Positions 1 to 14,367 of a stretch of DNA of 64,000 nt are shown in pieces; position 1 is the first letter of the stretch, and each line of letters begins with the position of its first letter. Made by a program: the position numbers and the translations under genes. The notes under the pieces were generated by a model, which did no database searches, was not told the DNA's origin, and saw only the letters and a list, made by a program, of their open reading frames with translations. The DNA comes from an uncultured Acidobacteriaceae bacterium (GTDB taxonomy: Bacteria > Acidobacteriota > Terriglobia > Terriglobales > Acidobacteriaceae). Where the stretch lies: positions 11,779 through 75,778 of the forward strand of contig CAWIZK010000003.1 of assembly GCA_963840555.1 (NCBI GenBank). Reading direction: 5' to 3'.

Positions 1-360
1 CACCGCCTCCTCCAGTGCCTTGCGTGTAGCGGGATGGACCCGGGCACCAGCCAAGAAAGGTTCGAATGACTGCTGCGATACGTTCGCCAAGCGCTTAATC
101 TGACGGGCAAAATCGCGCACATGAGGGATTTTGCTGTAGCGGTCCAGGAACATGGTCGCAAGATACGTCATGCTATAAGCGTTCCCGAGACCTTCGCCCA
201 TAATTTTGAGCTTCGCATCCGACGGAGCATCCTTAACGGCCTTCGCAAGCGGGCTGAGAAATCCGAGCTGCAGATATGGTGGAATCGGCCAATCAACCTC
301 CTTGAAGGCGTTAGCCAGCCATTCCGCAAACTCTCTGTTGGTTGAAGCGTTGCTTGACAT
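1..360 (-). CDS. hypothetical protein (N-terminal 120 codons; gene continues past left edge)
   Basis: Absent from the ORF track because it is truncated. Reverse-strand ATG at 358-360, open to position 1 (MSSNASTNREFAEWLANAFKEVDW...). The ATG lies 2 nt after the TAA stop (363-365) of the upstream gene, suggesting translational coupling. Confidence 0.5.
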   Translation of the reverse strand, partial: MSSNASTNREFAEWLANAFKEVDWPIPPYLQLGFLSPLAKAVKDAPSDAKLKIMGEGLGNAYSMTYLATMFLDRYSKIPHVRDFARQIKRLANVSQQSFEPFLAGARVHPATRKALEEAV

Positions 361-362
361 GA

Positions 363-1283
363 TTATTTTTTTAGCCACGGCAAGGTCGCTGTCTGATAAT
401 CGCTGAATTCCCGAACAAATCGCTCCGCCCATGCAGCCGCCTGGGCGACGGCAGCTTCTAGTGCGTCGTCCTTATACTCGATCTTGTGCCAGTGCTTATG
501 CTTTGCGTAAGTATCCTCAAACATCCAGGTAGCACCTTTGCCTTCTTCTTGCAGGACTGTGGTCACGCATTCAGCATCTTTAGCTACATGCGGAATTTCA
601 TAAAGATGGCCGGAAGGCTCTGAATTCTCGATGACGATAAACCTGGATGAGAGCGCATACCGCATCACCTTTTGCACAACGCCTTCGCCAACCCTATCAG
701 GCTGCTCTTTGATGATGTAGGTGTAATAGCCAAGTTCCTGCAGCTTTGATTCAATCCTCTTCAGCCTGTCGAGCGCCGGGCCAGTATCTTTGCCAAGAAT
801 AAGAACAGAGTCGGAGTTTTCAAGGATGGCATCGGCGCGCTGCCACACCAGATCAAACGCAGCCTTTATCGAGCTAATCAGCTCCTCGGGCGGAGTTGCC
901 AGCGGTAGTTGCAACTTCCATCTAACAAAAATATGAACGTCCTCGGCATCGCGGGAAGGGTCTGAGAGCGGATGTCCTTCGTGCATCAGGCGCGTAACCG
1001 CACGCTCCATCGCTTCGGAGAAGGCATAGGCGGAAAATTTGTGCTCCCAGTATTTGGTATAGAGATGCTCTTCGATTTCGCAGGCAAGGACATCGCCCTC
1101 ACGGCGGAGTGTCGTGCCCGGGAAATAATTGTCGATTACCCGGATCGCTACGTCATCGGGCATGGCTGCGAGATCGAGCGCCTTCAGCGCTTCGATACTT
1201 ATCGGATCGCCGTCTTCATGCCGGAACTCCTCCCAGCCGCCTTCGGGGTCGTTAACTTCGTGGCCTTCATGGTCTTCTGACAT
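363..1283 (-). CDS. hypothetical protein, acidic N-terminus, Rossmann-like beta/alpha C-terminal region
   Basis: ORF track 363..1298 starts at a TTG. The ATG at 1283 is preceded by GGAGAGG (1290-1296). The C-terminal segment VLILGKD...RFIVIENSEPSGHLYE alternates hydrophobic strands and helices. No family recognised with certainty. Confidence 0.6.
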   Translation of the reverse strand: MSEDHEGHEVNDPEGGWEEFRHEDGDPISIEALKALDLAAMPDDVAIRVIDNYFPGTTLRREGDVLACEIEEHLYTKYWEHKFSAYAFSEAMERAVTRLMHEGHPLSDPSRDAEDVHIFVRWKLQLPLATPPEELISSIKAAFDLVWQRADAILENSDSVLILGKDTGPALDRLKRIESKLQELGYYTYIIKEQPDRVGEGVVQKVMRYALSSRFIVIENSEPSGHLYEIPHVAKDAECVTTVLQEEGKGATWMFEDTYAKHKHWHKIEYKDDALEAAVAQAAAWAERFVREFSDYQTATLPWLKK

Positions 1284-1367
1284 GCGTGGCCTCTCCAATG
1301 ACCGTCGTAGTGATCCAAGCAGTTTAGCGGATAGATGGCAACCGTTCGTGTGGTCGCGCCGCTGAGG

Positions 1368-1417
1368 GCCATAAAAGAGGTTATGGGGTCGGGGTCCGAG
1401 CCCCTCCTCTTTTGGAA
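1368..1417. repeat. copy 1 of a ~50-bp degenerate direct repeat with palindromic core CCATAA-AAGAGG-TTATGG
   Basis: ccataaaagaggttatggg is shared exactly with 2206-2224, with collinear partial identity continuing to ttggaat. It also forms a hairpin AAAAGAGG...CCTCTTTT, which could terminate the upstream minus-strand ICMT gene. Confidence 0.6.
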
Positions 1418-1473
1418 TTGATGTGTCTGATAAATTTTGTTATCGGACACGCCTCGGGAAGAGGAGCAACGGA

Positions 1474-2040
1474 TCACAGATATCTTCTTACCCGACGGCT
1501 GTACTGTGTGTATTGCTCACCATAGTGCTTTCGCAAATAGTCTTCTTCACGCAAAACCTGACGGTTCAAGAGCCAGAAACCGCTGACGACATAAAGCAAG
1601 AATATCCAAGTCGGGAAAATCAGGAATTGGCCAATGAGGATAAAGCCGAACGCCACATATATCGGATTACGGCTGTAGGAAAAGATCCCGTCTGTTACAA
1701 GCTTGTCTGCGTGTTGCGCATCTATGCCGACCCGAAAGCTTTTTCCAAAGGAAATGAGGCTCGACAACAATAATGAGAGCCCCGCGAGGCAGAATGCCAC
1801 GCCGAGCCACTCGGTGATTGCAGAATAAAAAAGCTTCTTTGTACTCACCGTGGGGAGACCAAATGCTGCTGCGAACACGAGGTAAAAGTAAAATAGGGCA
1901 AAGGGCGGAATCAGAAAGTCCGTTTTGTCCGTTTCCCCGAATCTCATGGCTGCGATTCCTTGCCTTTTCAGGAGCAGGAGCCGGGCCACAACCATACCGA
2001 CCATCAGAACAATCGTCAGAGCGGCAAAATATCGGGGCAT
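1474..2040 (-). CDS. isoprenylcysteine carboxyl methyltransferase (ICMT)/phospholipid methyltransferase family membrane protein
   Basis: 188 aa, multi-TM. Motifs YSRNPIYVAFGFILIG and EEDYLRKHYGEQYTQY are typical of the ICMT/PEMT family. ATG at 2038-2040. Confidence 0.8.
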   Translation of the reverse strand: MPRYFAALTIVLMVGMVVARLLLLKRQGIAAMRFGETDKTDFLIPPFALFYFYLVFAAAFGLPTVSTKKLFYSAITEWLGVAFCLAGLSLLLSSLISFGKSFRVGIDAQHADKLVTDGIFSYSRNPIYVAFGFILIGQFLIFPTWIFLLYVVSGFWLLNRQVLREEDYLRKHYGEQYTQYSRRVRRYL

Positions 2041-2205
2041 GGGGAGTTCCGGGAAAATGCGACTTTAGCGTCTTAGGGCCCCTCGACGCAATGCAGAATA
2101 GCGCTTCGTGACCGTCTCGCTTGTTGGATTCAAGTGAATTGTCGCACCCCTGAGAACAAACAATTGTTAAAGAATCTAAACCATCTTGACGCTGGAGGCT
2201 TGCGA

Positions 2206-2256
2206 CCCATAAAAGAGGTTATGGGTTGTGATCCGGCTGAACGGTGCCCATTGGAA
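2206..2256. repeat. copy 2 of the ~50-bp degenerate direct repeat (palindromic core CCATAA-AAGAGG-TTATGG)
   Basis: Same 19-nt core as 1368-1386, same orientation. Lies between the cas1 terminators and the ICMT gene start. Confidence 0.6.
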
Positions 2257-2272
2257 TCATTCCAAAAATGCG

Positions 2273-2334
2273 GTAGTGGGCTGTTTTGAAACAGCCCGCT
2301 ACCAAAAATGCACGCGGCTTGCTTTTGCCGCGTG
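2273..2334 (-). terminator. two tandem intrinsic terminators downstream of cas1
   Basis: Hairpins CACGCGGC-N8-GCCGCGTG (2311-2334) and GTAGTGGGCTGTTT-N-AAACAGCCCGCTAC (2273-2302). On the minus strand each is followed by GCATTTTTGG. Confidence 0.6.
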
Positions 2335-2339
2335 GTTTG

Positions 2340-3905
2340 TCAGGCGAGATGTTCTTTCGAGACTCTGACAAGTTGCGCTAACGCCTTCCAGTGCATCGGG
2401 TGCGGCACGTGTTGACCTTTACGCACTTTTGCTGCATAGGGCTCGGATACGCTGAGCCTCTGCGCCAGAACGGGCACGGTCACGGAAGCAAGTCGAGGAA
2501 GGATCAGCGTGCGGTAGCTGGATTGAGTGAGCCAAGTCGGAAGACTCGACGGCAGCCACCCTGATCGTGCCTCCCGCTGTCGTTTCTGCGAAGCCGACAT
2601 CCGCGTCCTCGATTCAGGCGTCTTTGCTGCGATCCGGCCTCTCTGAGCGACTTCGATCATGTTAGCCTTCGAAATGCTGACTCCGCACTGTGCACAGTGA
2701 TTCCTCTGATTGCTGCTGAGCACGACTCCGCAGTCTCGGCAGACTTTCTGCGGACGAGGGACAAGAACACTTGACGGCACCGCGTTCCCCTTCGCTCCTC
2801 TCCGGTGCGCTTGCGTAAGCCGCGTTGGAAACTTACCGGCAGTGTTCGACTTGGAGGTGGTACACCACAAGGCTCGTGCGACGTACTCGGCCCAGGGTGC
2901 AACCAATCTCCCCCAAATAGGTGCAGTCTCGCTCAACTTGGCGCACATCCCGGACATGAGCCTGCAATTGCCATTCGCACTCTCGAAGAAATCGGCCCTG
3001 CGTAGGGGTTCCCGAGCGATCCACGTTAGCAGCCAGCTCTCGATTTGCGGGCGCACTGGTTCGAGAACATCAAAAGCGAGGGAATCCCGGTTGGAGGTGT
3101 CCGTGTGCAGACCTAATCCCAAGCCCGGATCGAGCCCTAATTCCCCAAGGGCCAATCGGGTTTCCGATTCGAGAAGCGCGAAGCAGAAATTGAGAATGGC
3201 GTGGAACGGCGTTATGGCGAGACGCGGGCCGCCCGATAGCGGCGACTGCCTTGTGCCGACCGTACGCCAGTGTTCGGGTACGCGACGCACGTCCGCCTTG
3301 GGCCAGAGCACACGAACATCCCGCAGTGTGCCGAAATATGCGATTGCGGCGTGACTCTCCACTGTTCTTAGCCGTTCGATTGTGTCGACCTTGGGCAGTT
3401 CGCAAGTTCGGATGCCAGCGATCACGTCCGCCGCACCGGAATCCGTCAATTGTTCGCGTATGACGCGCTCCTGCCCCTCCAGCTTGGCGTTTATAAGTTC
3501 ACGCGAGATCCTCAGGCCTGTGCCGTTCTGCCACGCCAGAGCTTGCGCACGCCTCAGCCGAGCATCGGATGAGGAGGGGGGACCAGTGACCAACTGAATC
3601 TTGCCGAGACGGTCCAAAAGAACGAACGATGCGCCAACGTCGCTCAACCACTTCAGCGCGGAGAGGGTGACGAAGCCATCATCGGCAATGCAGACGAGGC
3701 GTTTCAGGCTGTGTCCTATCCTTGGCAGTCGGGCCTGGCGGCGATCCGCACCGAGGCCATCTTCGAAAATCAGGTGACCACGATCGACGTTTATCTTTAT
3801 GCCGTATCCGCAGAGAGTGACAACATTATGTCGCGGCATTATCAGCAATGGGGATCCGGAATTGCCGGATGGCGGACGTTGAGATACGTTTTTCGTAGCT
3901 GTCAT
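2340..3905 (-). CDS. cas1: Cas1-family integrase homologue (casposase-like), with C-terminal Zn-ribbon and HTH extension
   Basis: 521 aa. Cas1-like succession: N-terminal beta domain (LVCIADDGFVTLSALKWLSDVGASFVLLDRLGK), helical catalytic domain with VESHAAIAYF (Glu), ITPFHAILNFCFALLE, GLDPGLGLGLHTD (His) and SLAFDVLEPVRP (Asp/Glu). Tail has CRDCG...CAQCG plus an HTH-like end. ATG with AGGAGAA upstream. No cas2 or CRISPR array nearby. Confidence 0.85.
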   Translation of the reverse strand: MTATKNVSQRPPSGNSGSPLLIMPRHNVVTLCGYGIKINVDRGHLIFEDGLGADRRQARLPRIGHSLKRLVCIADDGFVTLSALKWLSDVGASFVLLDRLGKIQLVTGPPSSSDARLRRAQALAWQNGTGLRISRELINAKLEGQERVIREQLTDSGAADVIAGIRTCELPKVDTIERLRTVESHAAIAYFGTLRDVRVLWPKADVRRVPEHWRTVGTRQSPLSGGPRLAITPFHAILNFCFALLESETRLALGELGLDPGLGLGLHTDTSNRDSLAFDVLEPVRPQIESWLLTWIAREPLRRADFFESANGNCRLMSGMCAKLSETAPIWGRLVAPWAEYVARALWCTTSKSNTAGKFPTRLTQAHRRGAKGNAVPSSVLVPRPQKVCRDCGVVLSSNQRNHCAQCGVSISKANMIEVAQRGRIAAKTPESRTRMSASQKRQREARSGWLPSSLPTWLTQSSYRTLILPRLASVTVPVLAQRLSVSEPYAAKVRKGQHVPHPMHWKALAQLVRVSKEHLA

Positions 3906-3974
3906 TGGAGTGTATTCTCCTATGTCGGTTAGGGCTTGTCGTCTGCTGATAACAGGCGGCAGGCCCGCTTTGAA

Positions 3975-4106
3975 TTAGATTTTCTTCAGATAGGCCTCAA
4001 CCGCGCGACGGAAAAGCTCGGCCATGGGCGCTCCTGTCTTGTCAGACACTTTCTTGAGCTTCGCAATCAATTCCTCCGGCAGCCAAACCGTCGTGCGCTT
4101 CTTCAT
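3975..4106 (-). CDS. ribbon-helix-helix (CopG/Arc-like) small DNA-binding protein
   Basis: 43-aa ORF below the track cutoff, translated by hand: MKKRTTVWLPEELIAKLKKVSDKTGAPMAELFRRAVEAYLKKI. This is the classic RHH pattern (beta strand, then two helices). Sits 69 nt upstream of cas1 on the same strand. Confidence 0.6.
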   Translation of the reverse strand: MKKRTTVWLPEELIAKLKKVSDKTGAPMAELFRRAVEAYLKKI

Positions 4107-4122
4107 TCTTCAAGTCTAATAC

Positions 4123-4140
4123 GTATGTCAATGTATGTCA
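4123..4140. promoter_or_regulatory. tandem direct repeat GTATGTCA-AT-GTATGTCA (candidate operator)
   Basis: Two identical 8-mers with 10-bp periodicity, immediately upstream of the RHH gene start (4106) and overlapping the stop of the 4138..4620 gene. Confidence 0.35.
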
Positions 4141-4620
4141 CTTGATTTGTTCGCCTTTTAGCCGTTTCTGTTCATCATTCCAAATGCGCTGAACTTTCCG
4201 TGGGCTGACACCAAACTTCTGAGATACGCGGCTATAGGCGAATGTCTGCTTCACGCCTTGGGCCTTATGATGCGCAACCTCAGCGCAGATTTTCTGGTCT
4301 TCATTGGGTGTTGATGTGCGTGGACGACCGCCGGGGTCGTGCGGAAGCTGTTTCAACACACCCGGCGCGGATTGCCTGACCGCGTAGACCAATTTAGGCA
4401 GCAACTGCAGGGTGTGCTCAAACGCGACGCCTTCGGCTTCGGGTAGTTGCCGTAACATTTCTCGGGCTGTTTCCCTATCACGAAGCGCTGAAAGTTTGGC
4501 TAAGAGGCCGGCAAGCCAAGGATAGAAGGCTTGGACAGCCTCCTGAAAGTTGCTGGGACCCAACGGCCTGATGGCACAATCCAGCGCTTCGAAGTACCGG
4601 TCTATCTCTTGGTCCGTCAT
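4138..4620 (-). CDS. hypothetical protein with C-terminal helix-turn-helix
   Basis: 160 aa, ATG at 4618-4620. The C-terminus QTFAYSRVSQKFGVSPRKVQRIWN resembles a resolvase/psq-type HTH. First gene of the minus-strand HTH-RHH-cas1 string. Confidence 0.6.
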   Translation of the reverse strand: MTDQEIDRYFEALDCAIRPLGPSNFQEAVQAFYPWLAGLLAKLSALRDRETAREMLRQLPEAEGVAFEHTLQLLPKLVYAVRQSAPGVLKQLPHDPGGRPRTSTPNEDQKICAEVAHHKAQGVKQTFAYSRVSQKFGVSPRKVQRIWNDEQKRLKGEQIK

Positions 4621-4745
4621 TGCGCCAAAAGCCCCCTACCCAGTTTTGGCATGGCCTGAAGCCAAAAGGGTACCCGAATTGTTGTGGCACCCTGCCTCCG
4701 CGACGATGTATGAGACCAGTTTTGAGGTCGACCGAGGGTTGTCAA

Positions 4746-5266
4746 ATGCGGCGTCGCAAGTCCATTTCGAGCCACAAACAGGTTGCGCAGACCCGCAGTG
4801 GTGCGCTTGCCTCCTCCGACCGGGCGTTTGAAGCCAAGCAAAGGGCCTTTCACGCCATTGCCAGAATGCGCAGTGGGGGCTCTCACTCACTGCTGCGGCA
4901 CGCGAGGAGGGCACAAAGGCCACCACGGTCAAGAAATACCTCCCCGCGGCCTTACGCCAGTCCAGACGCGGTACATGGACGGCTACGAAGGGAGATCGCT
5001 ACATCAGGACTGTGGTTCTGCCCAGTGCGCACGGCCACGTGACGGTCCAGGCACGGGGCTCCGCCGAAGCGGAACTGGCAGCTGCCTATTCTGCCGCCCT
5101 GGCTCGATGGGCACGCACCGGCAAACCAACCGAATTAGCTCCGTTTCGCGGGAAAAAGGTTGGCGGGTTTGAACTCCTGACAGCTCCTCGGGCCCTCTCA
5201 GCGTTGGGTGACGCCGGCCTGTTGCAACTCGATTCGCTTTACGCGTCCTTGAAGGACGCTGCATGA
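4746..5266 (+). pseudogene. HTH-domain protein interrupted by a frameshift at a G5 run (4875-4879)
   Basis: Frame 0 gives MRRRKSISSHKQVAQ...AFEAKQRAFHAIARMRSGG. A -1 step then gives LSLTAAAREEGTKATTVKKYLPAALRQSRRGTWTATKGDRYIRTVVLPSAHGHVTVQARGS...LKDAA. Together they read as one coherent protein. The stop overlaps the next ATG (ATGA at 5263-5266). Confidence 0.5.
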
Positions 5267-5592
5267 AGAACCTCCACCCACTCCGGGCTGAGCGCAGGCG
5301 GCAGAAGAGGGTCGTTGACCCGCCAAAGATGCGCTGCATTTTTTGTCTGGAGTTGGAGCATGTCGCAGGAGGCAATCACGACTTCCTGCTGACGTTTCCC
5401 GACATCTGCCAAAAGCACCACGATGTACTAACCGAGGCGCGGCGGAATGGCGATATCAACATGGTATTTGAGCGCGACCCGGTCAAACGTGTGGCACTGG
5501 CGCTGAAGTCTGCCTCTGTATTTCTGCGCATGTTGGCCGATGCGATGTGGCGCTGGGCGGCTCGATTAGAAGATGAGAGGAGTCCAGAATGA
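5263..5592 (+). CDS. small Cys/His-rich protein, possible HNH-type nuclease
   Basis: 109 aa. CIFCLELEHVAGGNHDFLLTFPDICQKHHDV fits a CxxC...(E)H...N...CxxHH layout. Start and stop both overlap neighbours in ATGA. Confidence 0.45.
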   Translation: MKNLHPLRAERRRQKRVVDPPKMRCIFCLELEHVAGGNHDFLLTFPDICQKHHDVLTEARRNGDINMVFERDPVKRVALALKSASVFLRMLADAMWRWAARLEDERSPE

Positions 5593-6437
5593 AGAAGAAC
5601 AAGAAACCTGGCGAAATAATTTCGCGAAGTATCCCTGGCGAAGTCTTGGGGCCATTACCCTTGCCGCCCGAACTAGCGACCCTGTCCGACCATTGGAGGG
5701 AGCTTACCTATGACCAGAGGATCGCCTACGTAAAGGGTCGCCCTCTGCAAGAACGCCTCCTGCTGCTCAAGAGCGTCGGTGGCGTCTGCAAAAACGCCAT
5801 CCAGGTTGTGTGCGAGTTCCGGCCGATCATCGAAGTATGCCGCGACGAATTCAGGCAGCCCGGACAGCGCGTCCCGGTCGAGGGCAAGCCCACTTGGACG
5901 AAGTTCATTCCAGAAACGTTTGGTTTCAGCCCGCGGCGCATGCAGCAGTTGCTCGCGGACGGCAACCCGGATGGCGGTCGGCGCGAGAAATCGCCTAGAC
6001 AAGCCCACGAAGCGAAACGCGGGCCAAAGACAGGCCCGGAGGAGGACTATCACCGGCTGCTAAAGGTCGAAGCTCTGGCAGTCGACCTGGCCAGGAGCGT
6101 GGTCGAGCAGGGTGACGCTGAGCGATATCCGGAGGCTGACGAGATCTTGAAAATCACCGGGTCGGAAGCGAACGCACAACCTTCCAGGTCGTGCACTTTA
6201 GCAAGCAGTCGCATCGCCGAGCCCGGCGATACCGAGGAAGAGGGGCAGATCACCGGTATCAAGATTGGGCCGCAGCCAGATTGCTATATCTGCGGGACCG
6301 GCCTTCATACTTGTGCCCTCCATGCACCCCAACTCGAAGCGTTGATGTTCCAACGCGGTATCGAAGACCATGACGCCTCGGACATTCTGCTGCAGCAGTT
6401 TGCCAAGCAGGGACACAGATTCTTGAAAACAGCTTGA
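5589..6437 (+). CDS. hypothetical protein
   Basis: 282 aa. GAGAGGAG upstream of the ATG, ATGA overlap with the upstream gene. No family recognised. Cys/His cluster near the C-terminus (CYICGTGLHTCALH). Confidence 0.55.
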   Translation: MKKNKKPGEIISRSIPGEVLGPLPLPPELATLSDHWRELTYDQRIAYVKGRPLQERLLLLKSVGGVCKNAIQVVCEFRPIIEVCRDEFRQPGQRVPVEGKPTWTKFIPETFGFSPRRMQQLLADGNPDGGRREKSPRQAHEAKRGPKTGPEEDYHRLLKVEALAVDLARSVVEQGDAERYPEADEILKITGSEANAQPSRSCTLASSRIAEPGDTEEEGQITGIKIGPQPDCYICGTGLHTCALHAPQLEALMFQRGIEDHDASDILLQQFAKQGHRFLKTA

Positions 6438-6485
6438 CCCCCGCTGGCGGTTCGCAAACATATTGCACAAAGGAGAGGAGACACG

Positions 6486-6704
6486 ATGAGCAAATGTAAC
6501 GAGCACGATGTCATGTGTGCCTTCGTTGCCACGACTTACAGAATGGCGTGGAAGGTCTGGAAAGAACACAACGGTAACCCGTCAGAAGCCGCACTTGAAC
6601 AATTGGAGATTCACGGGGATTGGCCTCGCGGGATGGCAGCCCGCGTTATGCAACGAATTAAAGGGGATTCGCAGCTGCGTGCCGAGCTTGAGCGCTGGTC
6701 GTAA
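6486..6704 (+). CDS. hypothetical small protein
   Basis: 72 aa. Strong SD (AAAGGAGAGGAG) upstream of the ATG. The stop lies 2 nt before the polB ATG. Confidence 0.55.
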   Translation: MSKCNEHDVMCAFVATTYRMAWKVWKEHNGNPSEAALEQLEIHGDWPRGMAARVMQRIKGDSQLRAELERWS

Positions 6705-6706
6705 GC

Positions 6707-9652
6707 ATGACGAACCAAAGCGGAGGCCGGACCGACACGCCGTTAGGCAAGGAGGTATTTCTCCGCAGCCACGTTGTCGAGGTGGACGCAAAGCACCCGC
6801 CAGCCAGTTCTTACGCCGAACCCAAATGGCCCGAGTACGCGCTTGTCTTCGATACCGAGACAACACTGGACCCTAGAGAGCAAGCGCTGCTCTTTGGTTT
6901 CTATCGCGTTTGCCGATTACAGGGAGACAGTTATCAATGCGTCGAAGAAGGGGTTCTTTACCCTGACGACCTGTCACCTAAACACATGACGCTCATCAAG
7001 CGTTACGTCAGGAATTCCAAATCGGAGGTTGTAAGCAGCGACTACGACGAAAGCATCCACCTGTACAGCCGGTCGGAATTCGCGGAGAAGGTGTTTTTCA
7101 ACGCTGTCAGAACGCGATCATTAATTGTTGCGTTCAACGCCCCTTGGGACATTTCGCGGTTATCGATTGACTACAAAACTGCCCGTAACCGCGCATGGTC
7201 GCTTGTCCTAGCGCAGCGGGTTTCGCGGAAGACGGGGCAAGTGGAAGCCAATCCGGAACGCCCACGGGTTCGGGTCACGTCAAAGGACTCTAAATCCGCC
7301 TTCTTCAGCCTGAGCAAGCCAATAAGGCCTGACGAATGGCCAACGTACATGGTTGGATCCAAGAGTCGCCTGGTTTTTCGGGTCCTGGATCTGCGCACCC
7401 TGGGATGGGCCTTATTCAATGAGAGTTATTCCCTGAAGGCCATTTGCAAAGCCACGAAGACCAAAAACCAAAAGCTGGACCATGAGCCCACAGGTACCGT
7501 GAGAGTTGACGAACTGGACTATTGCCGACACGACGTGCGCTGCACCGTTGACGCCCTGAATTCGCTAAAAGAGGAATTCGACAGACACCCAATCGATCTG
7601 CATCCGGACAAGGCAGTTTCGCCCGCGAGTGTCGGTAAGGCATATCTCCGAGCAATGGGCATTACTGCCCCTAAGAAGAAGTTCGACGTGCCAGATGAAA
7701 TTTATGGAATCGCTTCGCAGGCATATTTTGGCGGTCGTTCCGAAATCCGAATCCGCAAAACTCCCGTTCCCGTCGTTCTAACGGACTTCTCCAGCCAATA
7801 CCCGACGATAAATTCGCTGCTCGGTAACCCTGAAGTATTGATCGCCGAAAGCGTTTCGTTTGAAGACGCAACCGATGAGGTTCAGAAATTCATATCAGGC
7901 ATCACGTTGGAGGATTGTTTTCAGCAAAACACCTGGAAACAAATGAAATTCTTCGCGCGCATCCGTCCCGACGGCGACGTTCTCCCGGTGCGTGCGGAGT
8001 ACAACGAGGACGGCGTTACAAAGAACATTGGCATAAATTACTTCACGTCGAGCGAGCCGGTCTGGATCAGTGGCCCGGATCTGATCGCTTCGAAATTGCT
8101 GTCTGGCAAAACTCCACGGATTGAAAAAGCATTTCGCATGGTGCCGCACGGCCGGCAAAAGGGCCTTAAGCCGACAAATCTTCGCGGAATGGTCGGAGTT
8201 GATCCACGAAAAGATGATCTTTTCCGGGCCATGGTCGAGCAAAAATCGGTGTACAAATCCTCCAATGAAGCACTCTCGTATTTTCTGAAGATTGCCGCAA
8301 ATTCAACAAGTTACGGAATGTTTTTGGAGTTGACGCCGCAGAAGAAATTCAACCCGGTCAAAGTAAAAGTATTTTCTGGCGAACACAGCCACGAGCAACC
8401 GGTTAGCACCATCGAAAAACCGGGTGAGTGGTATTTTCCGCCAATTGCAGGCCTGATTACGGGCGGAGCGCACTTGCTGTTGGCGATGATCGAGCGCTGC
8501 ATAACCGATAAAGGCGGTCACTACTTGTTTTGCGATACCGATTCAATGTGCATTGTGGCCTCGAAGAAAGGTGGTTGGGTTCAATGTCCGAACGAGCCTC
8601 GTATTAAAGCGCTTTCGTGGAAGGATGTCGAACAAATTTCCGCGCGATTTGAGTCGCTCAATTGCTACGACCGGACAAAAGTGCGCGGATCGATTTTGAA
8701 AATTGAAAAAGTGAATTTCGACACCGATAAAAATCAAATTGAATTGTTCGGATACGCCATTAGTGCGAAAAGATATGCCCTGTACCGCTACAAAAAGAAT
8801 GGTGACATTGAAATCGTTGACGCAAAGGCTCACGGACTGGGATACCTCTATCCGCCGAAGGATTCCGTCAACGGGGACGAGGCGGAAAACGATTGGGTTT
8901 TCGAAACGTGGCGTTGGCTGTTGGAAGGCGAAGTTACAAAACCGACGACCACTCCAACCTGGTTTTCCATTCCTGCAATGATGCAAATAACCGTAAGCAC
9001 GCCAGCGGTTCTCGGAAATCTGAAGGGGTTCACCAGGCCTTTTAATTTTATTCACGTTCCCCTACTTTTCCCGAGCTCCTATCCCACAGGTAAGACTCCG
9101 TCGAACTTCAGCCTCATGATGCCTTTTTCAACCCATCGCGACCGATGGCTTAGGGCAGAAGCAATCGAGGTTCATAGCGGAGAACAATACCCAATCACGC
9201 TGCTGGATCCCAAGCGACGCACAAAGAAAATCGAGGTCAAGTGCTACGGGAATGTGCTCGGTGCGTATCGCGAGCACCCAGAAGCCAAATTCCTTGGGCA
9301 CGACGGTAAGTCATGTGTCAGCGATACACGTGGGCTGTTAAGGCGAAGCCACATCATTGCGGATCGTCATCGCTACATCGGAAAGGAAACGTCGCGTCGA
9401 TGGGAACAAGGCGAAGACCTGAGCATGGTCGACTTCCGATGTGTGGAATACGCCCGCGGAAAAATGAGCGCCAGTGACGAAATCAGAAAACGAATGATTG
9501 AAATTGGGATTCGGGAGGTCGCCCGGCGCAGCGGGGTCAATAGGGAAACCGTGGCGCTTATCACAAGAGGTCAACCAGTCAAAGCCGTAACCCTCCGAAG
9601 AGTAGTGGGAGCGCTTTCGGAGTCGCGCTGGGCGCGCGATAGTGGACCCTAG
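6707..9652 (+). CDS. polB: family B DNA polymerase with 3'-5' exonuclease domain and C-terminal HTH
   Basis: 981 aa. Exo I ALVFDTETT, Exo II VAFNAPWDISRL, Exo III YCRHDVRCT. Pol motif A LTDFSSQYPT, motif B KIAANSTSYG, motif C LFCDTDS, KxY ISAKRYALY. C-terminal IGIREVARRSGVNRETVALITRG looks like an HTH. Confidence 0.85.
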   Translation: MTNQSGGRTDTPLGKEVFLRSHVVEVDAKHPPASSYAEPKWPEYALVFDTETTLDPREQALLFGFYRVCRLQGDSYQCVEEGVLYPDDLSPKHMTLIKRYVRNSKSEVVSSDYDESIHLYSRSEFAEKVFFNAVRTRSLIVAFNAPWDISRLSIDYKTARNRAWSLVLAQRVSRKTGQVEANPERPRVRVTSKDSKSAFFSLSKPIRPDEWPTYMVGSKSRLVFRVLDLRTLGWALFNESYSLKAICKATKTKNQKLDHEPTGTVRVDELDYCRHDVRCTVDALNSLKEEFDRHPIDLHPDKAVSPASVGKAYLRAMGITAPKKKFDVPDEIYGIASQAYFGGRSEIRIRKTPVPVVLTDFSSQYPTINSLLGNPEVLIAESVSFEDATDEVQKFISGITLEDCFQQNTWKQMKFFARIRPDGDVLPVRAEYNEDGVTKNIGINYFTSSEPVWISGPDLIASKLLSGKTPRIEKAFRMVPHGRQKGLKPTNLRGMVGVDPRKDDLFRAMVEQKSVYKSSNEALSYFLKIAANSTSYGMFLELTPQKKFNPVKVKVFSGEHSHEQPVSTIEKPGEWYFPPIAGLITGGAHLLLAMIERCITDKGGHYLFCDTDSMCIVASKKGGWVQCPNEPRIKALSWKDVEQISARFESLNCYDRTKVRGSILKIEKVNFDTDKNQIELFGYAISAKRYALYRYKKNGDIEIVDAKAHGLGYLYPPKDSVNGDEAENDWVFETWRWLLEGEVTKPTTTPTWFSIPAMMQITVSTPAVLGNLKGFTRPFNFIHVPLLFPSSYPTGKTPSNFSLMMPFSTHRDRWLRAEAIEVHSGEQYPITLLDPKRRTKKIEVKCYGNVLGAYREHPEAKFLGHDGKSCVSDTRGLLRRSHIIADRHRYIGKETSRRWEQGEDLSMVDFRCVEYARGKMSASDEIRKRMIEIGIREVARRSGVNRETVALITRGQPVKAVTLRRVVGALSESRWARDSGP

Positions 9653-9684
9653 CTCCATTCGGCGTTCCGTTTTGGGTACAGGTT

Positions 9685-10347
9685 ATGCAGGACGACAATT
9701 CCGATCAACCCATCGGAATTTTAGCTTGCTGGCAGAAGATTCGGTTATCATCACTCGCCATGAAAATTCTAGTTAGCGATTATGGGTCGGGCCTGCAAGT
9801 TTGGGCTGATTTTCGCCGTGACGGCCTCGCATTTATTTCTGAAGTCAAATCGGTATCTACGCTTCCAAAAGTGACCGCGACACTATTACTGCGTTGGAGC
9901 GAAGTATTTGTAATGTTCTTGGTAGTCGGAATTGCTGATATCGCGGTGGCGTATCGACACGCGATTATAGGTTCGTGGCTGATATCACACTGGGCTGTTC
10001 AAAATGCAACGAAAGCGGCGACAGCGATTGCCCTTCTCGCCTTCGCGCTCGGATTGCTATTGGCCCTATGGAAACGAAGGCAGTTATTCACATACAGCAT
10101 CTGGGAAGTCGTTTTTGGAGCTTTTTCGGCCTTTCAATTAGGGCTGCTTTTGTTCCCAGCAGTGGAGATGTCTAAACTTGTTGGACTCGCATCCGCGTTG
10201 TACGTGGTATCAAGGGGAGGAGGAAATCTGGCCGATGCACTTGAAAAGGAGACCGAAATAGAGCGTCTGAAACTGGAAATGGTCAGAGGTGCTCCTCGTG
10301 AACCGTGGCCACCATCAATTCTTCCAAGATCTGAATCCACAACCTGA
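9685..10347 (+). CDS. hypothetical integral membrane protein
   Basis: 220 aa with about 4 hydrophobic spans (VFVMFLVVGIADIAVAY, AIALLAFALGLLLALW, VVFGAFSAFQLGLLLF, LVGLASALYVV) and a charged coiled C-terminus. Start uncertain. Confidence 0.5.
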   Translation: MQDDNSDQPIGILACWQKIRLSSLAMKILVSDYGSGLQVWADFRRDGLAFISEVKSVSTLPKVTATLLLRWSEVFVMFLVVGIADIAVAYRHAIIGSWLISHWAVQNATKAATAIALLAFALGLLLALWKRRQLFTYSIWEVVFGAFSAFQLGLLLFPAVEMSKLVGLASALYVVSRGGGNLADALEKETEIERLKLEMVRGAPREPWPPSILPRSESTT

Positions 10348-10433
10348 TCGTACAGTTGCCGTTCGACCCGGTCCCGCTAGCTCCAGGAACCGCACGAGGA
10401 AACGTGATCGGCAGCCGTTCGAGCCGAGGACAC

Positions 10434-11648
10434 CTAACGTTTCTTAGCTGCTGTCTCCGGATATCCGGGCGCAAAGAATTGGAAGTGTGTGCAATAGTTG
10501 CAAACAAAAGGTACTAGCCGGATTGACCCAACTTGCCTATGAAGTTGGTCAAATCTCTGCACTTCCAAGGCTTCCGATCCGGCAATTAGTTGGGGTCGAT
10601 AAGTACCTTTTCCGCATATCTGGCAGCGTCGTGGTAGATCTAAAAGCTGTCCTCCTTGATGTATTAGCCCAAGAACTTCATCTATTACCAGCAATAGCTC
10701 GGTGGCGTTCTCTAAGCAACGCAATTGCTCTTCGACTACGCAACGGTCGAGAATTCTGTTGATAAAGGCCATCTCAACGCTATCTGGAAACAGGCGCTCC
10801 AGGTCATTCTCTGGCTTATGGTGATACTCCCTGAGCAGCTTTAGTCGGCCTGCGACCATACACCACAACAGTTTCCCAAGCATATAAACATCAAAATCTG
10901 GCTTAACATCGTCTAACCGTTCGGCGATCGGCGCCCACGGGGGCATGTAGTCACGAGGCCCCACCTTTTCCTGCGTCAGTGTTATGCGATCTCCGTCGTC
11001 TGGCGAGTAGACAATTCCAAAGTCGCCCAGAACGAATGCCTCTTCACCCTGAGGAAATACATTGGCAGGTTTGATGTCGCGGTGGACAATTCCGTCGCTG
11101 TGTAGAGAAGCGACAGCTTGCACCAGAGAACGGAACACCGTGAGGGCCGCTAATGCTCTCCCGCGGAATTGCGTAATTTGCTTCTCCAGCGAACCTTGCG
11201 GAAAGTATTCGGTTATGATCCATCGCTCGTCTTCATTCCATTCCAAAAGCCTCAGGAGACCGGACCTGCCTTGGTTCAGCACTTTGATCTCACGCTTGAA
11301 GCGAGAAACAGCCAAGTCACCAGCCCCTCCTGCCGGAATCTTGAATTGTTTCAAGGCACCGAGTTCCGAAGGGTCATCATCACGAGCCGATTTTCTTATG
11401 GCGCGGGCGAAGAGTAGTGCATGTTCACTTTGACTCGGAAAATTGACGGTTCCACGCCTGACTTGAAAATCCAAGATCTCCGAAACGCTCTTATCGATTT
11501 CCGCTTGGCGTATCGGACTCCGAACCAACCACACTTCACTTTGACCGCCGCTCCCAAGAGGGAGGCCAAGTCTTGTCCAGTTAGAGATGTTTTCCATGGT
11601 TGCAAGAAGTGTACGACAGTCGGGGGGGGCCAGCTTTTCGGCCTCCAA
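10434..11648 (-). CDS. Ser/Thr protein kinase with C-terminal Zn-ribbon
   Basis: G-loop LGSGGQSEVW, catalytic loop HRDIKPANVF, GDFG. C-terminal CQICGKGTYRP...CNYCTHF. The track start is a TTG at 11648; an alternative ATG is at 11597. Confidence 0.75.
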   Translation of the reverse strand: MEAEKLAPPDCRTLLATMENISNWTRLGLPLGSGGQSEVWLVRSPIRQAEIDKSVSEILDFQVRRGTVNFPSQSEHALLFARAIRKSARDDDPSELGALKQFKIPAGGAGDLAVSRFKREIKVLNQGRSGLLRLLEWNEDERWIITEYFPQGSLEKQITQFRGRALAALTVFRSLVQAVASLHSDGIVHRDIKPANVFPQGEEAFVLGDFGIVYSPDDGDRITLTQEKVGPRDYMPPWAPIAERLDDVKPDFDVYMLGKLLWCMVAGRLKLLREYHHKPENDLERLFPDSVEMAFINRILDRCVVEEQLRCLENATELLLVIDEVLGLIHQGGQLLDLPRRCQICGKGTYRPQLIAGSEALEVQRFDQLHRQVGSIRLVPFVCNYCTHFQFFAPGYPETAAKKR

Positions 11649-11934
11649 TAGCTAGGCTCCGGTATGCACGACTCCAGTTGTCCATACCAGAAATAAAATC
11701 AGCACCGCCCGTTTACGTCTCCCGCTCCCCCACGCCGGAGCTCCTCGCGCTAACTTGATGGGGACGCATGCCGGTCACGGTTCCGTTTTCCATCACGGTT
11801 CCTATCTCGAACCCACATACCTCGTACATTTACCGTGTAGTACCCAAAACCCAAGTGGCTGGATTTTCCCGCCCCTATAGCTATCCCCCGCATTCAGTTG
11901 ACCCGCCGTTGGGAGCGGCCTAACATTACCGCCA

Positions 11935-14367
11935 ATGGACGTAGCCGCCGACAGTTTGGTCGGGCAGACCGTGTCCCATTACCGAATACTTTCCAAGCTC
12001 GGTGGTGGGGGCATGGGTGCTGTCTACGAAGCGGAAGACACCCGCCTTGGCCGGCACGTCGCGCTCAAGTTTGTCCCGCCGGAAATGGTGCACGACCGGA
12101 AGGCGCTCGACCGGTTTTTCTGGGAGGCACGGGCGGCTTCGCAACTGAACCATCCGGGAATCTGCACCATCCACGACATTGAAGACGCCGATGGGCACCC
12201 CTTCATTGTTATGGAACGTCTGGAAGGCGTCAGCCTGAAAGAACGCATGATGGGCGGGCCGATGGAGCTGGACGACATCCTCGACGTCGGTATCCAGGTT
12301 TCGGACGCGCTGGCGGCTTGTCACGCCAAAGGCATCATTCATCGCGACATCAAGCCAGCGAACATCTTCCTCACCAATAGCGGTCAAGTGAAGGTGCTCG
12401 ACTTCGGCGTGGCCAAGCTCGCGCCCGGAGTTCGCAGCGACAACGCGCTGGACGATCCGCTGACCATGGCGGGCGATATTTTCGGCACGGCCGTGTACAT
12501 GTCGCCGGAGCAGGCCCGAGGTGAAGAACTGGATGCTCGCACCGACCTGTTTTCGATGGGAGTGGTGCTGTACCAGATGGCGACGGGCCAACGGCCCTTC
12601 ACAGGCACCAATGCGGTGACCACGATGTCGGCGATCATGACCCAGAAGCCGCTCTCGCCGCTCAAGCTGAACCCCAAGCTCCCTCCCGAACTTGAGGGCA
12701 TCATCGGTCGAGCGATGGAGAAAGACCGGGGCCAGCGCTATCCCGACGCCCTGGCCCTGAAGGGCGACTTGCAGTCGCTGAAGCGCGAAACCGAGCCGGG
12801 CATGACCGACACCGCACGCATGCGGCCGCTGCTGCCCTACCGGATTTCGAGCAGCACATTTCAGAGCACGAGCCGCAAGCCGCTCTACATTTTGCTGGGT
12901 GTGATCGCGCTGTTGATCACATTGCTGATTCCCATGGGCGCGTGGTTCTTCAAGCAGCGATCCAACGTACACGCGCGTACAAGCATCGCGGTGCTGCCAT
13001 TGCAAAATATGAATGGCGACGTCGGCGCCGATTTCCTGCGCTTCGCACTGGCCGACGAGTTGGCCAATGCCCTCACGAATACCCGCACCCTGGACGTGCG
13101 TCCGTTCATGATGTCGCGAAAGTACGTTGGCAACGACGTCGATCCGCGCCAGGCCGCTGCTGATCTTCGCGTGGGGACGATCGTAACTGGTCACTTCCTG
13201 CAGCAGGGCGACAACCTCATGGTCACGCTCGAAGCCATGGATGGCGCGAGCGAGAAGCTGGTATGGCAGGCGAATGTAACCGGACCGGCCACCGATCTGA
13301 TTGGGTTGCAAGCTGCGATGAACAACAAGGTCACGCAGGGACTGCTGCCCGCGATTGGCATGGCCGGAGCGCAATCGGAAGGGGGGACGCATCCACACGA
13401 TGCAGCGGCCTATGACCTCTACTTGCATAGCCTGGCGCTGTCGCGCGATCCAGGTCCGAACAAAGACGCCATCGCAGTACTGGAGCACGCCGTCTCCGCC
13501 GATCCCAACTATGCTCCCGCGTGGGAGGAGTTGGGTCTTCGCTATTACTACGATTCCAGCTATTCAACAGGCGGCGAAGAGATGTTCCAGAAATCGACGC
13601 AGGCGTTTGAGAGAGCGGTTTCGCTCGATCCTAACCGCATCGTCGCCGCCGGCCAGATCATTGTTAATCATGTAGAGCGTGGCGAGCTGGGCAAGGCGTA
13701 TGAATTCGCGCAGGCACTGGTGAAACGCGCGCCGAACAGCGCCCAGTCCCACTTTGTTATGGGCTACGTTTATCGCTATGCCGGCATGCTCGGGCCTGCC
13801 ATGCAGGAATGCGACAAGGCGCTCGCGCTCGACCCCGGCAATTACACGTTCCGCTCTTGTACATGGGCCTTCATGGAAATGGGCAACACCAAGAGGGCAG
13901 CGGACTTCATCAAGCTGGACAACGGTTCGGAATGGGCGGCATATGCTACGCCATCGCTGCTGCTGCGCGAAGGCAAGATCGATGAAGCCCGCGAGGCCGT
14001 TAAGAAAATGGACAGCACCGCACGTCATCAACGCGTTCTGCTCGAAGCTTGCCTGGGCGTGAGACCGTACTCTGAGGCTCAGCAGATGGCGCATGACGCT
14101 GAGACCACCACTCCTGCGTTGCCCGACGCCGAACTCATCTACTATGCGGGCGCGATCTATGCCGATTGCGGACTCAAGCCGGCCGCGATGGTGATGTTGC
14201 AGCACGCTATTGAGCAGAACTACTGCTCGTATTCCAACCTGCAAAATGATCCCATGCTGCGCAAGATCCGCGGCACGTCGGGATTCGACAAACTTCTGCA
14301 ATCCGCCAAGGATTGCCAGCAATCAAACCTGCCGGCCATGAATACGAACGATGTCCAGGCGCCGTAA
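11935..14367 (+). CDS. membrane Ser/Thr protein kinase with periplasmic TPR region
   Basis: 810 aa. GGGGMGAVYEA, HRDIKPANIF, DFG, one TM (LYILLGVIALLITLLIPMGAWFF), C-terminal TPR-like repeats. Confidence 0.85.
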   Translation: MDVAADSLVGQTVSHYRILSKLGGGGMGAVYEAEDTRLGRHVALKFVPPEMVHDRKALDRFFWEARAASQLNHPGICTIHDIEDADGHPFIVMERLEGVSLKERMMGGPMELDDILDVGIQVSDALAACHAKGIIHRDIKPANIFLTNSGQVKVLDFGVAKLAPGVRSDNALDDPLTMAGDIFGTAVYMSPEQARGEELDARTDLFSMGVVLYQMATGQRPFTGTNAVTTMSAIMTQKPLSPLKLNPKLPPELEGIIGRAMEKDRGQRYPDALALKGDLQSLKRETEPGMTDTARMRPLLPYRISSSTFQSTSRKPLYILLGVIALLITLLIPMGAWFFKQRSNVHARTSIAVLPLQNMNGDVGADFLRFALADELANALTNTRTLDVRPFMMSRKYVGNDVDPRQAAADLRVGTIVTGHFLQQGDNLMVTLEAMDGASEKLVWQANVTGPATDLIGLQAAMNNKVTQGLLPAIGMAGAQSEGGTHPHDAAAYDLYLHSLALSRDPGPNKDAIAVLEHAVSADPNYAPAWEELGLRYYYDSSYSTGGEEMFQKSTQAFERAVSLDPNRIVAAGQIIVNHVERGELGKAYEFAQALVKRAPNSAQSHFVMGYVYRYAGMLGPAMQECDKALALDPGNYTFRSCTWAFMEMGNTKRAADFIKLDNGSEWAAYATPSLLLREGKIDEAREAVKKMDSTARHQRVLLEACLGVRPYSEAQQMAHDAETTTPALPDAELIYYAGAIYADCGLKPAAMVMLQHAIEQNYCSYSNLQNDPMLRKIRGTSGFDKLLQSAKDCQQSNLPAMNTNDVQAP

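Follow-up and report, generated by a model that had tools for sequence, protein, structure and literature searches.

A family B DNA polymerase with a C-terminal helix-turn-helix in an Acidobacteriaceae chromosome: probable polymerase of a family 3 casposon

What kind of element carries a family B DNA polymerase (PolB) of 981 residues in the chromosome of an uncultured Acidobacteriaceae bacterium, and how would such a polymerase begin synthesis? The gene lies at positions 6707-9652 (plus strand) of a stretch of 64,000 nt, the window of this study (assembly GCA_963840555.1, contig CAWIZK010000003.1, positions 11,779-75,778, forward strand). A first interpretation made from the letters of the DNA, here called the sequence-only reading, regarded the protein as a PolB of uncertain subfamily and raised the question of its priming mode. 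We propose, with a probability of roughly 0.85, that the open reading frame (ORF) encodes the PolB-HTH, a PolB with a C-terminal helix-turn-helix (HTH), of a family 3 casposon. Casposons are self-synthesizing DNA transposons, and this one would sit in the chromosome of a member of the Acidobacteriota. The kind of element is known; the phylum is newly added, as far as the searchable literature shows. The uncertainty about the subfamily is largely settled by two features that had been overlooked, a Cas1 casposase gene at 2340-3905 (minus strand) and a terminus at 11853-11888, which together identify a casposon (Table 1).

All seven PolB motifs listed in the sequence-only reading were located in the 981-residue ORF. 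The exonuclease motifs occupy residues 48-276 and the polymerase motifs residues 340-690; after them come a C-terminal extension, a linker (residues 857-918) and the HTH. In an alignment of 50 relatives, 47-77% identical to the window PolB, the exonuclease residues D49, E51, N144, D148, Y272 and D276 and the polymerase residues D360, Y365, K528, Y536, G537, D610, D612 and Y690 are invariant. Motif C is invariant from D610 to S613, and both C609 and K688 are conserved in at least 90% of the sequences. Since the catalytic residues do not vary, the protein is predicted to be active as polymerase and exonuclease. The large inserts already noticed in it amount to about 400 residues more than in the phi29 DNA polymerase (DNAP), and they are spread over the exonuclease domain, the intervals from Motif A to Motif B and from Motif C to KxY, and a C-terminal extension of about 290 residues. 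The family is populous: more than 1,200 relatives, nearly all unnamed, are held in a 90%-clustered database, and a profile search of 1.84 billion representatives returned 2,004 matches at E ≤ 1e-30 and 7,048 at E ≤ 1e-3, the weaker of which may include other PolBs. Genomic relatives are found in metagenome-assembled genomes of Acidobacteriota, Acidobacteriaceae and Bryobacterales.

The start codon of cas1 is 2.8 kb from that of polB, and the two genes are on opposite strands. The Cas1 protein matches the Pfam models Cas_Cas1 (E = 1e-30) and HTH_31, and its residues E183, H267, D279 and E282 are invariant, as are the four cysteines of its zinc ribbon. By BLASTP it is closest to the Cas1 of the family 3 casposon AceAut-C1 (191 bits, 40% identity, E = 3e-60), followed by three other family 3 Cas1 proteins (140-172 bits) and by that of HenMar (89 bits); family 2 proteins reach at most 91 bits, family 1 about 66 bits and the Cas1 proteins of CRISPR systems at most 37 bits. 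A neighbour-joining tree (286 columns, 200 bootstraps), built on the published Cas1 alignment of Krupovic et al. 2014 (supplement), recovered six Acidobacteriota Cas1 proteins as monophyletic (200/200), as sister to AceAut (195/200) and inside family 3 (174/200). By its sequence, the window Cas1 groups with the family 3 casposon proteins. Neither Rfam nor TRF detected a CRISPR array in the window, no cas2-like ORF was seen among the scanned ORFs adjoining cas1, and the window holds no tRNA gene or Rfam match.

The same pairing of genes is found at other loci. Related loci were labelled L001-L006, L008, L009, L010 and L013, and those informative for the linkage are L001, L003, L004, L006, L008, L009 and the truncated L002. 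At all seven, cas1 lies 2-3.4 kb 5′ of polB on the opposite strand with the same small ORFs in between, and the linkage extends to loci whose PolB is only 44-50% identical. In the relatives this core of Cas1, HTH, HNH and PolB sits inside elements of 12.9-17.6 kb, in which the left terminal inverted repeat (TIR) is 2.7-5.4 kb from the cas1 stop. The termini share the pattern GGGG-(T)ATAGCTATA-...-GGGAAAA-...-ACACC, with TIR lengths from 36 to 867 bp and perfect or near-perfect TIR pairs in L001, L003, L004, L005, L006 and L008, and the conserved tip of the TIR holds a palindrome of 8-10 bp (ATAGCTAT). The sequence-only reading had set a Pol II orthologue at a conserved locus as the contrary case; the relatives occupy differing chromosomal sites, each with its own target-site duplication (TSD). 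A second TIR directly follows the TSD in L003 (19013-19056) and L009 (17090-17139), which points to tandem insertions, and tandem casposon arrays have been described for M. mazei. Taking into account that: (i) insertion sites differ; (ii) TIRs and TSDs are perfect in several copies; (iii) some insertions are arranged in tandem, and (iv) a deletion derivative exists (L005), we propose recent transposition, and the Acidobacteriota casposon branch is, to judge by these sequences, recently mobile. Decayed copies occur as well: Cas1 is split in L001, PolB is split in L004, and L002 and L005 hold fragments.

The right terminus of the window element carries an exact match to the terminal 14-mer, and five intact relatives can be aligned with it at either end. 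The same DNA is also present in an independent assembly (10,107 bp), which ends 4 bp before the terminus. The 14 bp that follow are presumed to be the right-hand copy of the TSD, by analogy with L001, L004, L005, L006 and L008 and by the terminal TTGAC shared with them; a promoter-like site before the next gene, TTGACC-17-TAACAT, has its −35-like hexamer within reach of these 14 bp and overlaps them there. At an intact left end a second CGCATTCAGTTGAC would be followed by GGGGATAGCTATAG. Searches with seeded repeats, gapped blastn and the TIR profile gave no second TIR in the window, so that the element runs out of the window on the left. When metagenomes were scanned with the TIR of the window copy, three further termini came up and no copy of the window element. 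The GC content is 0.54 in the element and 0.59 in the flank, whose genes are bacterial in type. Positions 1-2339 are undecided between element cargo and host DNA, their GC content (0.52) being closer to that of the element.

In 9 of the 12 elements examined, the TSD, or the one flank that is visible, has the pentamer TTGAC at an end. In the window and in L002, a distant genome, the site itself is orthologous: at window positions 11889-11934 and at 5390-5494 of L002 a casposon terminus adjoins the stretch just 5′ of an orthologous kinase-TPR gene, with aligning flanks (GTTGACC...GGCCTAACATTACCGCC). The two elements are oppositely oriented, which suggests that the same site was used independently. 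Another terminus, in the metagenomic contig L013 (2455-9335), has a TIR tip of the window type beside ...GGTTGAC, and the 6.8 kb inward of it encode nothing like the proteins of the window element; the same ends may thus mobilise quite different cargo.

The published family 3 comprises AceAut-C1, NitAL212-C1, HenMar-C1 and StrAlb-C1 (Krupovic et al. 2014, PMC4046053), and four bacterial casposons were counted in 2014 (Makarova et al.). in NitAL212-C1 (14.4 kb, TSD of 14 bp) the 36-bp TIR opens with GGGGTAT, and the annotated genes are PolB-HTH, HNH, HTH, HTH and Zf-Cas1; HenMar-C1 has the order Cas1-HTH-HTH-HNH-PolB with a Ser/Thr kinase two genes later; AceAut-C1 has a 602-bp TIR and a Cas1 with a C-terminal zinc-binding domain and HTH (PMC4046053). 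The window element resembles them in its bacterial host, in a Cas1 whose sister in the tree is the AceAut-C1 protein, with which it shares the zinc-binding domain and HTH, in the PolB-HTH of NitAL212-C1 and in the gene order and kinase of HenMar-C1; its intact relatives also resemble them in short TIRs of about 36 bp that start GGGGTAT or GGGGAT beside a 14-bp TSD, as in NitAL212-C1. The 867-bp TIR of L003 parallels the long TIR of AceAut-C1. The Acidobacteriota elements differ from published family 3 in their host, no casposon description for the phylum having been found in the searchable literature; in their many near-perfect copies, tandem arrays and deletion derivative; and in that no helicase gene was seen here, whereas NitAL212-C1 and HenMar-C1 have SF1 helicases. 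The targets differ too, with the TTGAC motif and one insertion at a tRNA-Leu end here, while NitAL212-C1, AceAut-C1 and HenMar-C1 are given as 'intergenic' in the published Table S1.

Family 2 (AciBoo-C1, MetMaz-C1) shares with the Acidobacteriota elements a core of Cas1-HTH, PolB-HTH and, probably, HNH and two HTH proteins, a TSD of 14-15 bp (as published, A. boonei has 15 bp, and M. mazei and NitAL212 have 14 bp each), possible targeting of tRNA 3′ ends, and tandem arrays; the M. mazei TIR tip GGGATATAGG resembles the Acidobacteriota tips. It differs in having archaeal hosts and a Cas1 that lacks the zinc ribbon and is far more distant (at most 91 bits, compared with 191 bits for AceAut).

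The affiliation of the polymerase itself was approached through profiles and folds. PF03175, the Pfam model of the organellar and viral protein-primed type, was the only Pfam PolB match of the window protein, at 21.0 bits and below the gathering score of 25.8 bits; 46 of the 50 relatives match it weakly (best E = 1.3e-7), and none of the 50 matches PF00136 or PF03104, the models of cellular PolBs. Compared by sequence with solved structures, the protein and its family profile gave nothing significant, the best match being Motif C of Pol alpha (E = 0.37), and scans with PADLOC and NCBIfam yielded no match for it. The AlphaFold model (predicted local distance difference test, pLDDT, 80.6; predicted template modelling score, pTM, 0.79) has phi29 DNAP as its best solved-structure match (E = 1.5e-13), with Pol alpha, the ASFV polymerase and E. 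coli Pol II closely behind in the ranking, and the polymerases of His1, a tectivirus and GA-1 as the best viral-model matches.

Aligned with phi29 DNAP (in agreement with the PDB at 575/575 residues, setting aside D12A and D66A, which are crystallographic mutations), the family is colinear from ExoI through Motif C in the local mode of hhalign, at a weak E = 0.006; the global mode gave no such alignment. The AlphaFold model and this weak alignment place an insertion of about 135 residues at the position of TPR1. A long β-hairpin (residues 542-572) after the Motif B helix aligns, at the same E = 0.006, with phi29 residues 393-427, among which TPR2 is found. Because ExoI lies so near the N-terminus (residue 49), the N-terminal domain of cellular PolBs is absent. 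With the insertions at the TPR1 and TPR2 positions and the phi29 and His1 folds as best matches, the modelled architecture looks protein-primed-like.

These results agree with the sequence-only reading in that the protein is of the mobile-element type rather than a cellular Pol II. A cellular or domesticated PolB that happens to neighbour a stand-alone cas1, be it a repair enzyme resembling Pol II or a component of a defence system, would accommodate the several decayed copies (Cas1 of L001, PolB of L004, the fragments of L002 and L005) and the likeness of the cargo kinases to those of defence systems; it is nevertheless very improbable, given the varying insertion sites with perfect TIRs and TSDs, the tandem arrays and the deletion derivative, the lack of any PADLOC, PF00136 or PF03104 match, and a GC content below that of the flank. 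An E. coli Pol II-type identity was rejected on the position of ExoI, the missing cellular Pfam match and the varying loci with TSDs of their own.

The fold could also suggest that the polymerase comes from a tectivirus-like genome, either a protein-primed virus or a linear plasmid, that has integrated, since the structural likeness to tectiviral and phi29-like polymerases is accompanied by TIRs at the ends of the element. With phi29, GA-1, tectiviruses and His1 the window PolB shares, in addition to the matches named above, the canonical KxY and DTDS. It is set apart from them by an identity of only 12-14%, by the extra residues including the HTH, by integration through Cas1 with a 14-bp TSD, and by the lack of a recognisable terminal protein. 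Searched by tblastn, neither 50,697 phage records nor 72,556 plasmid records contained a match to PolB, and no capsid, packaging or terminal-protein genes were seen among the ORFs. A viral or plasmid origin is accordingly hardly credible, and prophage and plasmid were both rejected as sources.

The primer-independent PolBs (piPolBs) of pipolins are likewise divergent PolBs of similar size in integrated bacterial mobile elements, with insertions at TPR positions and no associated primase. They lack KxY and have KH-X8-KTRG instead (PMC5695915), whereas the window protein reads S-A-K-R-Y at residues 686-690, with Y690 invariant; the canonical KxY excludes a piPolB. Pipolins also rely on a tyrosine (or serine) recombinase and att direct repeats, not on Cas1, TIRs and 14-bp TSDs, and the piPolB identity, with next to no probability left to it, was rejected on these grounds.

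A more serious competitor is a hybrid element, in which a family 3-type casposase would be joined to a PolB from the protein-primed world that is not orthologous to the published family 2 and 3 PolBs and that would represent a new protein-priming subgroup. The Pfam pattern (46/50 against 0/50), the phi29, His1, tectivirus and GA-1 folds, the missing N-terminal domain, the colinearity with phi29 including the TPR1 and TPR2 positions and the G run at which the element termini begin would all suit it, and so would the 2014 papers, in which family 2 and 3 PolBs are called 'typical RNA-primed' and related to PolB3. Against it, the PolB-HTH fusion and the order HNH then PolB are exactly as annotated for NitAL212-C1 and HenMar-C1, whose polymerases also had phi29 among their HHpred results (PMC4046053). 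Moreover, the A. boonei casposon PolB already belongs to PolB_CDTDS, a divergent cluster with ties to the main PolB group as well as to the protein-primed PolBs (pPolB) (Kazlauskas et al. 2020, PMC7544198); a terminal protein could not be recognised, and the fold scores of Pol alpha and the ASFV polymerase nearly equal that of phi29. We consider the hybrid unlikely and retain the family 3 casposon. The window PolB shares with PolB_CDTDS the CDTDS of Motif C and a fold position intermediate between the main PolB group and pPolB. Since phi29 DNAP also reads YCDTDS, the motif lacks specificity, and CDTDS was dropped as a diagnostic of the cluster.

The HTH-like segment pointed out in the sequence-only reading (IGIREVARRSGVNRETVALITRG) corresponds to PolB residues 933-955 and falls within a four-helix module (924-978), joined to the polymerase body by the linker, which is of low confidence in the AlphaFold model. 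Modelled alone, the C-terminal 67 residues fold with a pLDDT of 84.8 into helices H10-19, H21-28, H32-39 and H46-62, and the Foldseek matches are all XRE-type HTH proteins: C.Kpn2I, HipB, 434 Cro and VanUg. In the published HHpred analysis of the NitAL212 PolB-HTH, VanUg was likewise reported (Krupovic et al. 2014, PMC4046053). Pfam gave a LacI HTH match on the window protein (E = 0.008) and HTH_26 on 13 of the 50 family members (best E = 1.3e-5). The isolated model, the XRE/Cro-type fold matches and HTH_26 in the relatives confirm that the HTH is real. It is not, as had been thought, unusual for such a polymerase, having been described for family 2 casposons and annotated as 'PolB-HTH' in the family 3 element NitAL212-C1.

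The linker also holds a strongly conserved motif, GKETxRRWEQGxDxSxVDF (window positions 9380-9436, PolB residues 892-910), with G892, K893, E894, R897, W899 and D904 invariant. A linear motif conserved within a disordered stretch may be where a partner docks, for instance Cas1, the HNH protein or DNA.

Several points weigh against the casposon assignment or against parts of it. The presumed placement of PolB in the family 2/3 PolB clade is indirect, coming through Cas1 linkage, gene order and HTH fusion, the last as in NAL212_0249. Sequence comparison with solved structures fails to separate the window Cas1 from the Cas1 proteins of CRISPR systems (3.7e-30 for 4N06, 4.1e-30 for the casposase 6OPM). 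Family 2 casposons are stated to have a hallmark in the C-terminal HTH that Cas1 and PolB each carry; here BLASTP gave no alignment between the two C-terminal HTHs, and hhalign aligned them in register but weakly (E = 0.005, probability 7.5%), so that a 'similar HTH' is not claimed. The TPR1/TPR2 assignment is tentative, as it depends on the AlphaFold model and the weak profile alignment (E = 0.006). One terminus of the window copy is visible, and its completeness is not demonstrable from the window. Finally, the split HTH gene and the interrupted HNH gene described below mean that this copy may be non-autonomous.

For the mechanism we propose the following model. As in the A. boonei and M. 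mazei casposases, Cas1 would join the 3′-OH ends of the element to target positions staggered by 14 bp, and subsequent gap repair would produce the 14-bp duplication. The HTH of Cas1 is probably essential for integration, as is that of the family 2 casposase of M. mazei. PolB would copy the element, brought to it by the flexibly tethered XRE-type HTH; the most plausible target of the HTH would be the TIR tip, since its palindrome of 8-10 bp is of the kind bound by dimeric XRE-type HTH proteins. The long β-hairpin at the TPR2 position would give PolB strand-displacement synthesis independent of clamp and helicase.

How synthesis would be primed is less clear. No primase, helicase or terminal protein was recognisable among the ORFs scanned, in line with the sequence-only reading as to primase and terminal protein, although terminal proteins are too divergent for a negative to count. 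Four modes were ranked by judgement, not measurement. The one we favour, at somewhat less than even odds, is a nick-primed strand-displacement copy-out from a 3′-OH provided at the element boundary by the translationally coupled HNH protein or by Cas1. Protein priming at the G-run termini is a weaker candidate. Such termini would allow sliding-back, as in PRD1 and phi29. RNA priming by the host primase, the proposal of 2014, seems to us just as doubtful as protein priming, and de novo synthesis is improbable.

A wider and tentative extension of the casposon reading, which we think probably does not hold in full, is that the PolB of family 3, and possibly of family 2, is not 'typical RNA-primed'. 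It would have a protein-primed-type architecture, be tethered by its HTH to a palindromic, G-run-tipped TIR, and start at the element boundary without an RNA primer, by an HNH nick, a protein or de novo; the clade would be very large and recently mobile in soil Acidobacteriota. In that event bacteria rather than archaea would be the main casposon reservoir and would offer a tractable system for casposon replication.

The CRISPR adaptation module has been proposed to descend from casposons, whose replication is still to be explained; no biochemical characterisation of a casposon polymerase was found in the literature accessible to this analysis. Family 3 casposons appear to be common and recently active in Acidobacteriota, a branch much larger and more recently mobile than the searchable literature records, and thousands of 'hypothetical proteins' of about 980 residues in soil metagenomes are probably casposon polymerases. 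The ends of the elements are clean, the duplication has a defined length of 14 bp and the target motif is recognisable; tandem arrays occur, as does a non-autonomous derivative. With TIR, target, Cas1, HNH and PolB-HTH the elements would provide a natural substrate set for tests of casposon integration and replication in a bacterial setting. The priming question is sharpened, in that the modelled PolB architecture looks nearer to the phi29 type than to cellular polymerases, contrary to the label of 2014.

Table 1. Features of the window element, motifs of its polymerase, and related Acidobacteriota elements
Feature	Position or size	Strand	Details
Casposon (probable), family 3-like, right-hand part	1..11888	.	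right terminus at 11888; left terminus beyond position 1
Casposase	2340..3905	-	521 aa; Cas1 domain, four-cysteine zinc ribbon (C389, C392, C404, C407), C-terminal HTH
Ribbon-helix-helix protein	3975..4106	-	43 aa; Pfam RHH_3 E = 3e-11; gene also called in independent Logan assembly
160-aa protein, possible C-terminal HTH	4138..4620	-	weak matches to DUF7769 and IS481 transposase N-terminal region; relative in L006
Homologue of conserved ~177-aa HTH protein, split in two	4746..5266	+	overlapping ORFs 4746-5042 and 5039-5266
HNH-type nuclease	5263..5592	+	109 aa; invariant C25, C28, E30, H33, C49, H53 (CxxC...E-x2-H...CxxCH)
282-aa protein	5589..6437	+	this copy only; between two HNH-gene halves
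72-aa protein	6486..6704	+	corresponds to the C-terminal domain of longer HNH proteins (197-198 aa) in L006 and L009; tblastn E = 2e-16, 50% identity
PolB-HTH, family B DNA polymerase	6707..9652	+	981 aa; ATG start, TAG stop
PolB motif ExoI	residues 48-53		FDTETT
PolB motif ExoII	residues 144-148		NAPWD
PolB motif ExoIII	residues 272-276		YCRHD
PolB Motif A	residues 360-366		DFSSQYP
PolB Motif B	residues 528-537		KIAANSTSYG
PolB Motif C	residues 608-613		FCDTDS
PolB KxY motif	residues 687-690		AKRY
XRE/Cro-type HTH module of PolB	9449..9649	+	residues 915-981
Membrane protein (predicted), cargo	9685..10347	+	220 aa; at least three hydrophobic segments
Ser/Thr protein kinase, cargo	10434..11648	-	404 aa; Pfam Pkinase E = 2e-20
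Right TIR	11853..11888	-	minus-strand reading GGGGATAGCTATAGGGGCGGGAAAATCCAGCCAC; TIR profile E = 8e-9
Presumed TSD, right-hand copy	11889..11902	+	14 bp, CGCATTCAGTTGAC
L001 element	14,000 bp		TIR 37 bp, perfect; TSD 14 bp
L003 element	17,632 bp		TIR 867 bp, perfect; TSD 12 bp, overlapping tRNA-Leu(CAG) 3′ end
L004 element	17,008 bp		TIR 36 bp, perfect; TSD 14 bp
L005 deletion derivative	9819-14325, 4,507 bp		TIRs 40 bp; TSD 14 bp; PolB fragment only
L006 element	16,408 bp		TIR 53 bp; TSD 14 bp
L008 element	12,921 bp		TIR 111 bp; TSD 14 bp

Between cas1 and polB, two of the conserved genes are altered in the window copy. The halves of the HTH protein measure 98 and 75 residues, which could be a frameshift or a real two-gene arrangement; its counterpart in L001, L004, L008 and L009 is a single ORF of 161-179 residues, matching Pfam HTH_20 in L001 (E = 1e-3), and HTH_17 was recorded on a 66-residue ORF of L009. 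Should the split be a frameshift, the window copy may be partly defective. The HNH gene of the relatives stands directly 5′ of polB and its end overlaps the polB start, an arrangement of translational coupling; Pfam support for the HNH domain is weak (E = 0.17, on the L004 orthologue). At 5263-6704 of the window the 109- and 72-residue ORFs correspond to the N- and C-terminal parts of the single HNH protein of L006 and L009, and these two ORFs and the 282-residue one between them are all intact and tightly packed. The 282-residue protein found no family match in four libraries and is absent from every related locus.

Downstream of polB, the genes of the predicted membrane protein and of the kinase are taken as cargo because they lie inside the right terminus. 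The membrane protein gave no family match in the library scans. Kinase cargo recurs in L009 (2901-3776), in L010 (2721-3776) and in the published HenMar-C1, and the kinase domain of the window protein matches the PADLOC models mad6 and PD-T4-6. In L003, ARAGORN called a 93-nt tRNA-Asn(GTT) at 17835-17927, just inward of the right 867-bp TIR, which is either a carried gene or a false call.

Beyond the cas1 stop, two perfect copies of a 19-nt sequence, CCATAAAAGAGGTTATGGG, at 1369-1387 and 2207-2225, flank a methyltransferase-like gene (1474-2040, minus strand; 188 residues). Its product was not on record in the look-ups, and its best NCBIfam match is isoprenylcysteine O-methyltransferase, at 64.7 bits and below the cut-off of 160. 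The 19-nt sequence is itself a small inverted repeat (CCATAA/TTATGG), and the chance expectation of such a match was 0 in 100 shuffles; the two copies may mark the gene as an inserted cassette. Just 3′ of the cas1 stop, at 2260-2309, a 15-bp inverted repeat (GGTAGTGGGCTGTTT / AAACAGCCCGCTACC) lies between A/T runs (CCAAAAAT at either side) and has the look of an intrinsic terminator that works in both directions.

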